Positions 4,442-48,416 of a stretch of DNA of 64,000 nucleotides are shown here, one piece after another. The stretch lies in sequence record MZ868638.1; one strand, written 5' to 3'. How positions within the stretch are numbered: the stretch's first letter is position 1; each line of letters starts with the position of its first letter. Below the pieces are notes generated by a model that was given only the letters and a program-made list of their open reading frames with translations, did no database searches and was not told the origin of the DNA. This DNA is from Escherichia phage vB_EcoM-pEK20. A program made the translations under genes and the position numbers.

Positions 4442-4984
4442 ATGAGAAAAGCACTACTCGCTGGTCTATTTGCTCTTTCATTATCAGCACATAGCTCCGA
4501 GCATACTTTTAGTAATGTCCAACTCGATAACTTGAATTATGCTTATCAGTTTGGGGAACAGTTTTCTAAGGATGGAAAATTTAAAACGCATGAAAATATG
4601 CATAAGAAAGGACTTGGATACATAATGGCCGCAATACTATGGCAGGAATCATCTGCCGGTATTAATCTTAAAGATAAGAAAGGTCACCATGCGTATGGAA
4701 TGTTCCAAAATTATCTACCAACAATGAGGGCAAGAATTAACCAACTTGGTTATAATATGACTGATGCCCAAATTAAGAAAATGCTATCTAAGCGGTCTAA
4801 TTCAGCCAGATGGGCTTATATAGAATTTTCTTATTGGTTAAATATACATAACGGGGATATAAGGAAAGCCTTATCCTCATATAATGCGGGATGGAAGACA
4901 AGTGCTGGAAGTAAATATGCTTCTGAAGTCCTAGAAAAGGCTAATTACCTTAAATCAAATAAACTACTGGAAATAAAAGAATGA
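4442..4984 (+). CDS. Periplasmic lytic transglycosylase-like protein with signal peptide
   Basis: Signal peptide MRKALLAGLFALSLSA; Slt-type motifs E-S-S (WQESSAG), GMFQ and YNAGW. Confidence 0.5.
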   Translation: MRKALLAGLFALSLSAHSSEHTFSNVQLDNLNYAYQFGEQFSKDGKFKTHENMHKKGLGYIMAAILWQESSAGINLKDKKGHHAYGMFQNYLPTMRARINQLGYNMTDAQIKKMLSKRSNSARWAYIEFSYWLNIHNGDIRKALSSYNAGWKTSAGSKYASEVLEKANYLKSNKLLEIKE

Positions 4985-45435: not shown

Positions 45436-45456
45436 AGGAGACTTCGGTCTCCTTTC
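45436..45456 (+). terminator. Rho-independent terminator (UUCG loop)
   Basis: GGAGAC-TTCG-GTCTCC then TTT. Confidence 0.5.
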
Positions 45457-45518
45457 GGGGTTTACATCTTCCTCTAGGCATGATATGATGTACTTACACA
45501 AACCAAGAGGAAAACATT

Positions 45519-45893
45519 ATGAATATGTCTCAAGCAATTTTTACTGCAATCACCGAAAACACAACTGTTGAAGTAGTTTCTCCGCTGGCAACCTACGTTA
45601 TTCTTGCTCCTAAAACTATTGTATCTCGTATGGAAAACATGGGCAAACGTATCGTACAAATTGTTGGAGCCGGAAATCAAAAACTTGATTATCTGCGAAC
45701 CATCAAAGCTTATGAACATTTCCAACTCGAAAAAGGTTCTCCTATCCAGGTAGAACTCGTAAATGGTGATATTGTTCGAGCAATGTTCCATCATTTCTAT
45801 GCATTGAATGACCCATCTAAAGCGGTTCGTTTAATTGCATACGACGCAAACCAAAACGAAATCAACGCAGATGTATCTAAATTACGTTTTTAA
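45519..45893 (+). CDS. Hypothetical protein
   Basis: ORF only. Confidence 0.35.
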   Translation: MNMSQAIFTAITENTTVEVVSPLATYVILAPKTIVSRMENMGKRIVQIVGAGNQKLDYLRTIKAYEHFQLEKGSPIQVELVNGDIVRAMFHHFYALNDPSKAVRLIAYDANQNEINADVSKLRF

Positions 45894-45922
45894 GTTTACT
45901 TCTCCAGTAGTTGTGTTATTAT
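45894..45922 (+). promoter_or_regulatory. T4-type early promoter with stem-loop (PeSL-like)
   Basis: GTTTAC 45894-45899, TATTAT 45917-45922; TTCTCCAGTAGTTG pairs with CAACTACTGGAGAA 45931-45944. Confidence 0.45.
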
Positions 45923-45948
45923 AGACCTATCAACTACTGGAGAACAAA

Positions 45949-46266
45949 ATGAAAACCATCGATTGTAAAGCAGAATTTAAGATTTTTTATCACGGTTCAA
46001 GTAGTTCAGCTAACATCGAAAACATGCTTTGTCCTCCTGAGGAAACAGGAGTTCTGTCTGAAACCGGACGTAAGAAAAACTTGGATCGTGTATTCTTTAC
46101 TGAAGATATCGGTTTAGCAAAGATTTATGCAGGACGAGCAGCACGCTCTTATGGAGGTGAACCACGTCTCTATCGAGTAATTTCTCCGGTAGACGTAGTT
46201 CAAATGAATAATACTAAAGGTGCTACAGTTTATCACGCTGAATGGGCATTTTGCGAGGAAATATGA
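45949..46266 (+). CDS. Small protein with PARP-like HGS motif
   Basis: FYHGSSSS...CPPEE...VFFTEDIGLAKIYA parallels the PARP NAD-site HGS...PPE...YFA pattern; only 105 aa. Confidence 0.3.
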   Translation: MKTIDCKAEFKIFYHGSSSSANIENMLCPPEETGVLSETGRKKNLDRVFFTEDIGLAKIYAGRAARSYGGEPRLYRVISPVDVVQMNNTKGATVYHAEWAFCEEI

Positions 46267-46454
46267 GCAAATTAACTAAAGTTACTTTTATTGGTTGGTT
46301 TAAAAGTGGTGAGATGTTCACTAAAGATATCATGTTATCAGGTGACCGTGAAGAAATCGAGTGGGTTGCTGTACAACTCGCTGAAGTGAACAGTGCACTT
46401 GTTAAAGCATTTGTTAATGACGAGAAAGTTTTTGAAGCTGATTTCAGAGGATAA
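46263..46454 (+). CDS. dmd: Dmd, antitoxin against host RnlA/LsoA RNases
   Basis: MSKLTKVTFIGWFKSGEMFTKDIM...VNSALVKAFVNDEKVFEADFRG matches T4 Dmd as recalled. Confidence 0.8.
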   Translation: MSKLTKVTFIGWFKSGEMFTKDIMLSGDREEIEWVAVQLAEVNSALVKAFVNDEKVFEADFRG

Positions 46455-46455
46455 T

Positions 46456-46668
46456 ATGTATTCAACTGTGTTTAAACCATCAACATACGAATTTGCATCA
46501 ACTACACAATGGAAAGCTCTTATTCTGGAAGGATGGGAACTAATGATGGACTGTGAAGCATCTGAAAAGTTTCCACACGGCAAAGTGGACTTCGTTAAAT
46601 TTGCTGTACGTCCGACTAAACGACAGATTCGTCAAGAAAAACGCAAATTTCGCAAAAGTTTAAAATAA
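46456..46668 (+). CDS. Small protein with basic C-terminal tail VRPTKRQIRQEKRK (paralog)
   Basis: Internal ATG of ORF 46393-46668; same tail motif as 17268 and 17863 ORFs. Confidence 0.35.
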   Translation: MYSTVFKPSTYEFASTTQWKALILEGWELMMDCEASEKFPHGKVDFVKFAVRPTKRQIRQEKRKFRKSLK

Positions 46669-46728
46669 CTGTTTACAAGCACCACATACTGTGTTACTAT
46701 CTTTTTATCAACTACAGAGGAAATTGAA

Positions 46729-47097
46729 ATGAAAAAATTAATCGCTTTAGCAATGGTATTTGGATTAACCGGATGTGGTGCCCATGGCTTTATCCCTAAT
46801 AACGTTGGCCAACTGATTTACAATCCGAATGTTAAACAGTATGACCAACCTAAAGTTGAAGTGGAAGACCCGGTTACTGTAGGTAATCGAATGATTCAAG
46901 CTGATGCCCATGCTCAACGTTATCGTGACTCTGATACTGTAGCATTGTCAAAAGAACAACGCGTTAAAGAACATTGTCTACAATCTACTGAAATCGCATT
47001 CATTCGCTATGTTGAAACAACTGGTAAAGAGCCTACCCAGAAACAAATCGCAAATAACTACGTCCAGTGTATTGAACGTTTAAACAAATTTAACTAA
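46729..47097 (+). CDS. Lipoprotein (lipobox LTGC)
   Basis: MKKLIALAMVFGLTGC signal/lipobox. Confidence 0.5.
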   Translation: MKKLIALAMVFGLTGCGAHGFIPNNVGQLIYNPNVKQYDQPKVEVEDPVTVGNRMIQADAHAQRYRDSDTVALSKEQRVKEHCLQSTEIAFIRYVETTGKEPTQKQIANNYVQCIERLNKFN

Positions 47098-47158
47098 TTG
47101 GTTTACACCAAAGTTAAAATAAGATACTATAAACATAACAAATCAAGAGGAAATTAAC

Positions 47159-47407
47159 ATGGAATTATTCGTAGCTAGTTCAGTAGCAGTTTTAATCGCA
47201 GGTATTGGTTCAATCATCATTTACATGTTGCCTTGGGTAATCGCACTTATTCGTGGCACAAAAAGCACAACAGCAATCTTCTTTGTATCTTTACTCTTTA
47301 ACTGGACGATGATTGGTTGGATTGGAACTTTAATTTGGTCTATCGTTGCCGAAAAGAAATCTGCTCAGCAGCCTCAACAAGTAATTATTATTCGCGAAAA
47401 AGAATAA
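47159..47407 (+). CDS. Small two-TM membrane protein, Imm-like (superinfection immunity candidate)
   Basis: Two hydrophobic helices, adjacent to sp. Confidence 0.35.
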   Translation: MELFVASSVAVLIAGIGSIIIYMLPWVIALIRGTKSTTAIFFVSLLFNWTMIGWIGTLIWSIVAEKKSAQQPQQVIIIREKE

Positions 47408-47470
47408 ACTTGTTTACATTATAGATGGACTATAGTATAGTAGTCCTATCAAATCAACTAAGGAGTTAAA

Positions 47471-47764
47471 ATGAAAAAGTTATCATTGGCAGCAATCTTA
47501 CTTGCAGTATCATGTGCACCAGCTCCAGTTACGGCAGGTTATGATAAAGACCTCTGTGAGTGGTCAATGACTGCAAATCAAGAAGATGTTGAACAACAAA
47601 TCTTCTCTGATATCATGAACATCACTAAACGAGACCGTCCTAATATGGTTAATAAAGTTGTTGAACAACTTAAGTCTGGCGGTATCATGCAGTACAACTA
47701 TGTTTTGTATTGTGACCCTAATTTCGATAACAAAGATATCGTAACCGAAATCACAGGTGAATAA
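47471..47764 (+). CDS. sp: Spackle periplasmic protein (superinfection exclusion, gp5 lysozyme inhibitor)
   Basis: AGYDKDLCEWSMTANQEDVEQQI...GGIMQYNYVLYCDPNF matches T4 Sp as recalled. Confidence 0.75.
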   Translation: MKKLSLAAILLAVSCAPAPVTAGYDKDLCEWSMTANQEDVEQQIFSDIMNITKRDRPNMVNKVVEQLKSGGIMQYNYVLYCDPNFDNKDIVTEITGE

Positions 47765-47765
47765 C

Positions 47766-48416
47766 ATGATTTATTACATGCACAAAAATGCGCCATTTAA
47801 ATATGGTAAATTTCCTAATGCGCAATGTTATAATATAACGCCGAATGAAAATAATAACGGATATCATATTGGTGTAATTTTTGTAATTGTTAAAGATAAC
47901 GAAATCGTTGCCTGGGCAGATTTTAAAGGTACAACATATGATGTTAATCCTGTGCCTTTCACATATTACAATATAATGGATTTGGCATATGATTATAATT
48001 GGTTTAATCACGACGCGTTGGCTCATATTGAAGGTGTAGGATTTGACATCTCTTATTCTAGCTATTCATTATGTCCTATGAGCCGAGCTCACGGTAAAGA
48101 TGCATCATATCTTTCATTTCGGAAACGTGTAAACTTCAAACGTAGTACAGAGTATGTCGGTGGACTCTTTGTTAAAGATAATAAAATAACCCGTATTAGT
48201 TATCCTCTAAGTGTAGGTCAAAAAGATGTTGATGTTGATTTAGACTTAACTGAAAATAACATTAATCATATTGCTTCTGTATATTTTGATATCGATGAAA
48301 AAATTGTAGTGTGTGGATACGAATTACCACCCGAAGAAAAGGCTGAAGCAATTGAAGTCGAATTAGAAATTTCTGTCGATGACCAAATATTTAATGCATT
48401 TATGAATCGAGGTTAA
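47766..48416 (+). CDS. Hypothetical protein
   Basis: ORF only. Confidence 0.3.
   Translation: MIYYMHKNAPFKYGKFPNAQCYNITPNENNNGYHIGVIFVIVKDNEIVAWADFKGTTYDVNPVPFTYYNIMDLAYDYNWFNHDALAHIEGVGFDISYSSYSLCPMSRAHGKDASYLSFRKRVNFKRSTEYVGGLFVKDNKITRISYPLSVGQKDVDVDLDLTENNINHIASVYFDIDEKIVVCGYELPPEEKAEAIEVELEISVDDQIFNAFMNRG

Follow-up and report, generated by a model that had tools for sequence, protein, structure and literature searches.

A stretch of 64,000 nucleotides (nt) of Escherichia phage vB_EcoM-pEK20 (MZ868638.1), hereafter the window, was analyzed. The open reading frame (ORF) at 45949..46266 on the plus strand is read as the gene of a free-standing, early, NAD+-dependent ADP-ribosyltransferase (ART), and its target would be conserved across Gammaproteobacteria. 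The probability of this reading is put at roughly 0.6; we infer the NAD+ binding, the catalysis, the target class, and the expression timing. A conserved target is favored because the sequence is under extreme constraint and the gene is present in phages of very different hosts. The reading is also based on the recurrence of the ART module in proteins of the polyvalent and portal-fused kinds, which presumably are carried into the cell together with the DNA.

The ART gene starts with ATG and encodes a protein of 105 amino acids (aa), i.e., MKTIDCKAEFKIFYHGSSSSANIENMLCPPEETGVLSETGRKKNLDRVFFTEDIGLAKIYAGRAARSYGGEPRLYRVISPVDVVQMNNTKGATVYHAEWAFCEEI, which is 100% identical to RB69ORF040c and matches phrog_2110 end to end (E 6.9e-60). 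As the original prediction had stated, the ORF contains HGS (residues 15-17), PPEE (29-32), and VFFTEDIGLAKIYA (48-61), and it is placed directly upstream of the antitoxin-mimic gene dmd with an ATGA overlap; the sequence and the ORF list confirmed these points. Homologs were found by tblastn in 609 of 50,697 phage records, and 140 clusters at 90% identity matched the protein in a large protein collection. Some of these homologs carry the GenBank label 'putative ADP-ribosyl transferase'. The ratio of nonsynonymous to synonymous substitution rates (dN/dS) was about 0.08-0.11 against JS98-like and other enterobacterial T4-like phages, with gp41 of the compared phages being saturated at synonymous sites. 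The ORF is considered a real gene under strong purifying selection, not a chance motif.

The structure was predicted with AlphaFold2 on a 34-sequence family alignment. The model showed a mean pLDDT of 89.6 and a pTM of 0.79, and only about the first 10 residues, which are absent from 96-aa homologs, were weak. Strands were placed at residues 13-18 and 48-51, a helix at 54-68, and further strands at 72-81, 84-87, 94-97, and 99-104. This arrangement, i.e., six strands and one long helix in a split β-sheet with the order strand 1, strand 2, helix, and strands 3-6, is the full minimal ART core. Foldseek against PDB gave Arr first (probability 1.00) and Tpt1/KptA next, and the structure search gave the NAD-binding lobe of Tpt1 as the best match, with 75 aligned residues of the 179-aa target. 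Further fold matches were OspC3, PARP15, CARDS, diphtheria toxin, DarT, pertussis-like toxins, ParT/RES, and others. Among the viral proteins of BFVD, the model matched a siphovirus entry of 94 aa that carries the name of an Arr-type transferase (TMq 0.74, TMt 0.82). The model shows that the protein has an ART fold, and with Arr as its first match, the predicted fold is not unrelated to ART.

A sequence-level link to Arr was found with a broadened family profile. Against PDB sequences, two Arr proteins accounted for the three best matches (best E 0.011), and the fourth match, a weak aminotransferase (E 0.74), looks like chance. In this alignment, H15 of the family is paired with H19 of Arr, F49 with Y49, Y60 with W59, and E38/R41 with E40/R43; the HGS histidine and the VFFT...IY aromatics line up with Arr NAD-site residues. 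Ten residues, i.e., H15, G16, E38, R41, F49, A57, Y60, G69, G70, and G91, are invariant in the broad family, H15-G16 also being invariant in the 34-sequence alignment; a basic GRKKN loop shows almost no variation in the broad family. The Pfam Arr-ms model (PF12120) gave no match for the ART protein, and 3 of the 34 close homologs matched it weakly (best E 0.026). The distant relatives P0126, P0132, P0148, and P0161 scored 26.9-29.4 bits, the gathering score being 25, over model positions 1-67 of 99 only. Because the window protein is below the Pfam threshold and the distant relatives align only over these 67 positions, the ART family is judged to be a sister group of Arr-ms, not a member. In these sequence comparisons, Arr is the only protein family linked to the ART family.

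The original prediction had compared the motifs with the NAD-binding core of ARTs of the H-Y-E class, i.e., PARP and Tpt1/KptA. The likeness to this core stands in that the fold is that of an ART and that H15 and the aromatics align with Arr. However, PARP was ruled out as the closest relative, the nearest relatives being Arr and the NAD lobe of Tpt1, and the tyrosine of the triad is replaced.

The protein had also been regarded as too short for a full catalytic domain, and this view is not maintained. The 105-aa ORF is a complete miniature ART domain, not a truncated one, because the model has the full ART core of six strands and a helix, a unit of about 95 aa is discrete in larger proteins, and some stand-alone homologs are just 96 aa. 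An exhaustive profile search of 1.84 billion representatives gave 228 relatives of the ART domain. In many of them, the unit of about 95 aa forms a discrete module, frequently C-terminal, of a phage protein that is 250-3900 aa long. Its fusion partners were ART-PolyVal (a second ART), NUDIX, CHAP, lambda-type portal with 2H/Acb1-like phosphoesterase, GNAT with Toprim-primase, and several phage domains with no assigned function; the recognized partners are all phage families. These fusions are a recurring NAD/ADP-ribose-processing context. Examples are P0169, P0159, P0137, and P0133, in which the module was found in a portal and 2H/Acb1-like phosphoesterase fusion and in giant polyvalent proteins with ART-PolyVal and NUDIX. 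A link to conjugative plasmids was considered and dropped, as tblastn of the ART domain against 72,556 plasmids gave no match.

Identity to the window protein at the same loci was 80-89% for the ART, 65-68% for the gp41 helicase, 48-66% for Dmd, and 35-53% for TifA. The nonsynonymous substitution rate (dN) was 0.087-0.155 for the ART and about 0.25-0.26 for gp41. By these measures, the ART is more conserved than the replicative helicase.

In the proposed mechanism, the ART gene would be expressed right after infection from its own T4-early-type promoter, and the RB69-type transcript would also carry dmd and tifA. H15 on the HG[ST] strand and the aromatics F49 and Y60 would hold NAD+, and the ADP-ribose would then be transferred to the target conserved across Gammaproteobacteria. 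As the acceptor, the end of a nucleic acid, a small molecule or nucleotide, or a universally conserved protein of the host is considered more likely than a strain-specific immune protein. This acceptor class is proposed by analogy, because Arr and Tpt1 modify a hydroxyl or a phosphate without dependence on the canonical Glu, which also makes catalysis by the phage ART plausible. That the acceptor is a phosphate or hydroxyl group, or else a universal protein of the host, is weakly suggested by the relatedness to Arr and Tpt1, by the basic GRKKN loop, and by the absence of a Glu common to the whole family.

Several points weigh against this interpretation. The ART protein itself had no match in Pfam, NCBIfam, PADLOC, or PDB sequences by phmmer and the first profile. 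At the strand-2 position where the H-Y-[EDQ] triad has Tyr, the family has an invariant Phe (F49), and the second aromatic, Y60, is invariant as well. No acidic residue of the C-terminal third is invariant family-wide; E103 is invariant in the Straboviridae clade only, and position 88 is variable, mostly D/N/E, and N in the pEK20 protein. Because the triad Tyr is a Phe and the family-wide acidic residue is absent, catalysis stays at the level of a prediction. The target class is drawn from analogy and conservation. The synonymous substitution rate (dS) of the ART against JS98-like phages (L004/L005) was 0.81, and that of gp41 was about 2. Since the ART dS is below the gp41 dS, part of the high ART identity could come from recent lateral exchange and not from constraint; the value hints that Mosigvirus and JS98-like phages exchanged the gene laterally in the fairly recent past, or that constraint acts on its codons. 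In the literature, no biochemical or genetic study of any family member was found. Searching for ORF040c gave only same-numbered ORFs of other phages, and the gene is not dealt with in the HIDEN-SEQ preprint or in the DarTG1 paper.

An alternative, considered unlikely, is that the protein is a dedicated counter-defense ART which inactivates a host immune effector, so that ART-dmd-tifA would be a three-gene anti-toxin (anti-RNase) cassette. Such ARTs have precedents in AcrIF11, which targets Csy1, and in T4 Alt, which targets MazF. The unit is shared with Dmd and TifA, both proven inhibitors of toxin-antitoxin (TA) RNases, and imm, sp, and gp61.2 are placed just downstream; gp61.2 is presumably AdfA (adfA), an anti-DarTG1 factor. 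The gene is also accessory, since to our knowledge T4 has no ORF040c homolog, and T2 and T6 likewise. For the polyvalent and portal-fused proteins in which the domain is found, early delivery into the cell has been suggested, as interpreted from PMC9503650. However, counter-defense proteins usually evolve fast, whereas the conservation of the ART exceeds that of the helicase. The hosts of the phages that carry the gene differ widely (Vibrio, Aeromonas, Acinetobacter, and Klebsiella), and in the annotated loci of Klebsiella, Acinetobacter, and Vibrio phages the contexts of the gene were unrelated to dmd or known counter-defense genes. A universal target is favored over an immune effector because of this conservation, the host breadth, and the contexts that lack counter-defense genes.

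A bolder proposal, which we regard as quite unlikely, combines several of these features. The family would be the smallest known free-standing ART family (about 95-105 aa), one that holds NAD at a His-Phe-Tyr site and lacks a catalytic Glu common to all members. Right after infection, it would act on an acceptor other than a protein, e.g., a metabolite, a nucleotide signal, or the phosphate end of RNA or DNA. In RB69-type phages, it would join Dmd and TifA as the third, enzymatic arm of a system that shields phage RNA from host toxin RNases.

The relation to dmd has to be considered separately. In a previous study by Iyer, Burroughs, Anantharaman, and Aravind (2022, Viruses 14:1977, PMC9503650), a 'p0068-family' ART was reported to precede Dmd in Escherichia, Shigella, and Salmonella phages, the two were proposed to be a TA pair, and 'p0068-like' was among the most frequent viral ARTs. 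From the description of the phage groups and the gene pair, phrog_2110 is probably this 'p0068-like' family. Adjacency was examined in 66 loci, i.e., 65 IMG/VR loci and RB69, by iterated hidden Markov model searches of all ORFs. Dmd was encoded directly downstream of the ART in 11 of the 66 (L001-L010 and L014), belonging to two enterobacterial clades. Elsewhere, the ART gene was followed by a 46-aa Cys-rich (Zn-ribbon) peptide, a 55-60-aa membrane peptide, a lipoprotein-like ORF, or a larger unrelated protein, and in Acinetobacter-type loci the next ORF of at least 35 aa was about 215 nt away. The ART-dmd linkage is lineage-restricted.

The host distributions of the two genes were also compared. 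The 609 ART records included 215 from Escherichia, 116 from Klebsiella, 68 from Acinetobacter, 62 from Aeromonas, 29 from Enterobacter, and 14 from Vibrio phages. Dmd was found in 798 records, nearly all from Escherichia (596), Shigella, Yersinia, Salmonella, and Citrobacter phages; two Pseudomonas records and six further names were listed, and none from Klebsiella, Acinetobacter, Aeromonas, or Vibrio. At least about 300 ART-bearing phage records are from genera missing in the Dmd listing. Identity was less than 60% in 570 of the 798 Dmd records, a class in which the rows sampled were T4/T2-type phages. The overlap of ART and Dmd records was only about 230, as estimated from the Dmd identity classes of at least 60%.

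Two side observations concern the genes next to dmd. In L004-L009, which are JS98-like phages, a 39-47-aa acidic Cys-rich (CxxC...CxxC) peptide starting with MEEFECVVCGC was found after dmd (about 4514-4663). The same peptide directly follows the ART in the dmd-less loci L012, L016, L017, and L019, so dmd shows a presence/absence polymorphism in an otherwise conserved context. In L010 (4532-4873) and L014 (4498-4830), a longer ORF of 110-113 aa, a Dmd homolog by iterated search, is placed right after dmd and may be a tandem Dmd-like paralog with a C-terminal extension.

With these data, the published proposal of a phage-borne type II TA pair, in which the ART would be the toxin and Dmd its cognate antitoxin besides inhibiting RnlA/LsoA, was evaluated and is very improbable. 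ARTs are often TA toxins, and DarT, ParT, and RES were present among the fold matches. The toxin gene comes first in rnlAB, and the toxin-first order and the tight ATGA junction of the phage genes resemble rnlA-rnlB and lsoA-lsoB. The phage genes also agree with the published 'p0068-like' pair (PMC9503650), which was described from Escherichia, Shigella, and Salmonella phages with the ART gene directly 5' of dmd. However, distribution and rate analyses of the phrog_2110 locus do not support this proposal. The pair is adjacent in just one sixth of the loci, and those lacking dmd carry the Zn-ribbon peptide, a small membrane protein, or the lipoprotein-like ORF instead, or the wide Acinetobacter-type gap. 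Several ART-bearing host genera are missing from the Dmd listing, many Dmd records are in the class whose sampled rows are T4/T2-type phages, and far fewer Escherichia phages had the ART than had Dmd. Co-evolution was not seen: two Dmd allele types with 48% and 66% identity flank the same 89%-identical ART, and Dmd dN was 0.29-0.47 where ART dN was 0.087, i.e., a 3- to 5-fold difference.

The junction gives no further support. The ART stop TGA (46264-46266) and the dmd ATG (46263-46265) share bases, giving ATGA at 46263-46266. Short junctions are common in RB69, as another 4-nt overlap, an 8-nt overlap, and several 1-nt gaps were found among the annotated genes of the same 9.8 kb. A 4-nt overlap was also found between ART homologs and quite unrelated downstream genes in other phages, and in the second dmd-bearing clade the ART gene and dmd abut with a gap of 0 and no overlap. 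The ATGA junction is not distinctive but generic for the RB69-type genome. Because of the adjacency in 11 of 66 loci, the largely disjoint host distributions, and the rates without co-evolution, the TA reading is poorly supported. The adjacency looks like the result of both genes lying in a gene-dense variable early region between genes 41 and 61, in which tifA, imm.1, imm, sp, and gp61.2 are also located. The ART most likely acts independently of Dmd, the two being functionally separable genes of one unit in RB69-type phages. The coupling to dmd in a shared anti-defense operon, suggested by the original prediction, is retained in so far as the ART gene forms one unit with dmd and tifA in pEK20, but it does not extend to the family.

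Last, a non-catalytic NAD+/ADP-ribose binder, i.e., a decoy or sponge that sequesters NAD+-derived immune signals or buffers NAD+, is not favored and has little probability; the decoy idea had been raised in the original prediction. The very small size, the replaced triad Tyr, the lack of a family-wide acidic catalytic residue, and the best structural match to the Tpt1 NAD lobe, where the catalytic residues of Tpt1 are in the other lobe, would fit it. However, Arr, to which the sequence is most closely related, has a core of about the same size and is enzymatically active, and the ten invariant residues including E38 and R41 and the conserved GRKKN loop go beyond the apparent needs of a pocket alone. 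In polyvalent proteins, moreover, the neighbors of the domain are enzymatic effector domains, and a sponge role needs stoichiometric abundance.

The free-standing early ART is preferred over these alternatives, and its predicted early expression was studied in the upstream region. By consensus scan, a T4-early-type promoter-like site, with a putative promoter function, was found at 45895..45922 on the plus strand. It has a -35 element (G)TTTACT from 45895, a 16-nt spacer, and a -10 element TATTAT at 45917-45922 preceded by TG. Sites of the form GTTTAC, 16-17 nt, TA(T/C)TAT precede ORF041c (45461), the ART gene (45895), imm.1 (46672), and imm (47102). The same scan gave no early-type site between the ART gene, dmd, and tifA; the next one, 5' of imm.1 at 46672..46700 on the plus strand, marks the downstream boundary of the unit. 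As no promoter-like site lies between them, the three genes look like one early transcription unit in the RB69-type phage.

The Shine-Dalgarno (SD) sequence of the ART gene, GGAG, is at 45938-45941, 7 nt 5' of the ATG. It is part of a predicted RNA hairpin at 45900..45944 on the plus strand, of which the 5' arm lies in the promoter spacer, the loop holds the -10 element, and the 3' arm covers the SD. The arms are 19 nt long with 89% complementarity, the folding energy is -21.1 kcal/mol (z -5.26), and 0 of 200 shuffles folded as well. A shorter version of the pairing, TCTCC...GGAGA, is retained in many related enterobacterial loci. Transcripts from the local promoter would lack the 5' arm, so their SD would be free, and the SD would be masked only on read-through transcripts from gene 41 or ORF041c. 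Start-site-dependent translation is a known device of T4, and the hairpin resembles it, which suggests that ART synthesis is tied to its own promoter. A terminator-like hairpin inside the ART ORF (46034-46051) was judged to be chance, as it is located in coding sequence and as 1.2 such sites were expected and 2 found.

The neighboring genes are those of an RB69-type phage. The 1.8 kb around the locus are 98-99% identical to RB69 and to many Mosigvirus genomes, and the window is assigned by sequence to an RB69-type Mosigvirus (T-even). The downstream gene was named dmd in the original prediction, and this was verified: dmd (46263..46454, plus strand) encodes a 63-aa antitoxin mimic against RnlA/LsoA, matches Pfam Dmd PF17587 (E 3.1e-20, 72.7 bits, cut-off 27), and is annotated as Dmd in PHROG and RB69. 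It has its own GAGG 5 nt upstream of the start. The last gene of the unit, tifA (gp61.4; 46456..46668, plus strand; DUF7279, phrog_2375), starts 1 nt past the dmd stop, is annotated as gp61.4 in RB69, and encodes a ToxN inhibitor 100% identical to RB69 gp61.4. Inhibition of the ToxN RNase by RB69 TifA was demonstrated experimentally (PMC9391042).

Downstream of dmd, a conflict-gene cluster (46456-48416) consists of tifA, imm.1, imm, sp (superinfection exclusion), and gp61.2 (47757-48416). Upstream, ORF041c (45519-45893) encodes 124 aa of phrog_10668 with no Pfam family, has its own early-type promoter-like site (45461-45489), and was found in only 3 of the 66 loci, all of RB69-type phages. Between the gene 41 stop and the GTTTAC promoter that comes next, and directly adjoining both, lies a tetraloop hairpin, GGAGAC-UUCG-GUCUCC, with TTT after it (45437-45452); it may be a terminator or a stabilizer. 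A similar GGCTTCGGCC...TTTCGGGGTTTAC arrangement is seen in other enterobacterial T4-like loci.

The ART was compared with known systems. Arr, the rifampin ADP-ribosyltransferase (PF12120; PDB 2HW2 and 9IAF), is likewise a small single-domain ART, and it shares the HG[ST] His, the E-x-G-R loop motif, and the strand-2 aromatic with the following helix. However, Arr has 143 aa, its Y49/W59 are Phe/Tyr in the phage ART, and the C-terminal third is not aligned. The phage family is also probably expressed early and is absent from the plasmid collection, and a rifamycin substrate is not expected. In Tpt1/KptA, an N-terminal RNA-binding lobe carries the Arg-His-Arg-Arg catalytic tetrad. The 105-aa ART corresponds to the NAD lobe only, with no room for the RNA lobe, and no sequence-level match was found to Tpt1/KptA. 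AcrIF11 has no detectable sequence similarity to the ART, its host range and context are different, and its target, type I-F Csy1, is not universal. Alt, ModA, and ModB of T4 are also early or injected T-even ARTs that reprogram the host, and Alt modifies the TA toxin MazF as well. However, these enzymes belong to the R-S-E clade, are much larger, were not among the ART fold matches, and are a separate family according to PMC9503650.

The fold class, the ADP-ribosyl transferase labels of some homologs, and the ART-Dmd neighborhood were already known. The affinity to Arr and Tpt1, the complete modular domain, the conservation above that of the helicase, the evidence against the TA model, and the ART-dmd-tifA layout with an SD-masking hairpin are new. 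The published ART-Dmd TA prediction is corrected, and ART-dmd-tifA is best treated as one early unit of separable genes. With 609 of 50,697 records, the family is among the commonest ARTs in sequenced phages, and its conservation is higher than that of the replicative helicase. Because the protein is small and soluble-looking and RB69 is a tractable phage, a target search would be straightforward. Identification of the acceptor would reveal a further use that T-even-type phages make of NAD+ during the initial minutes after infection.

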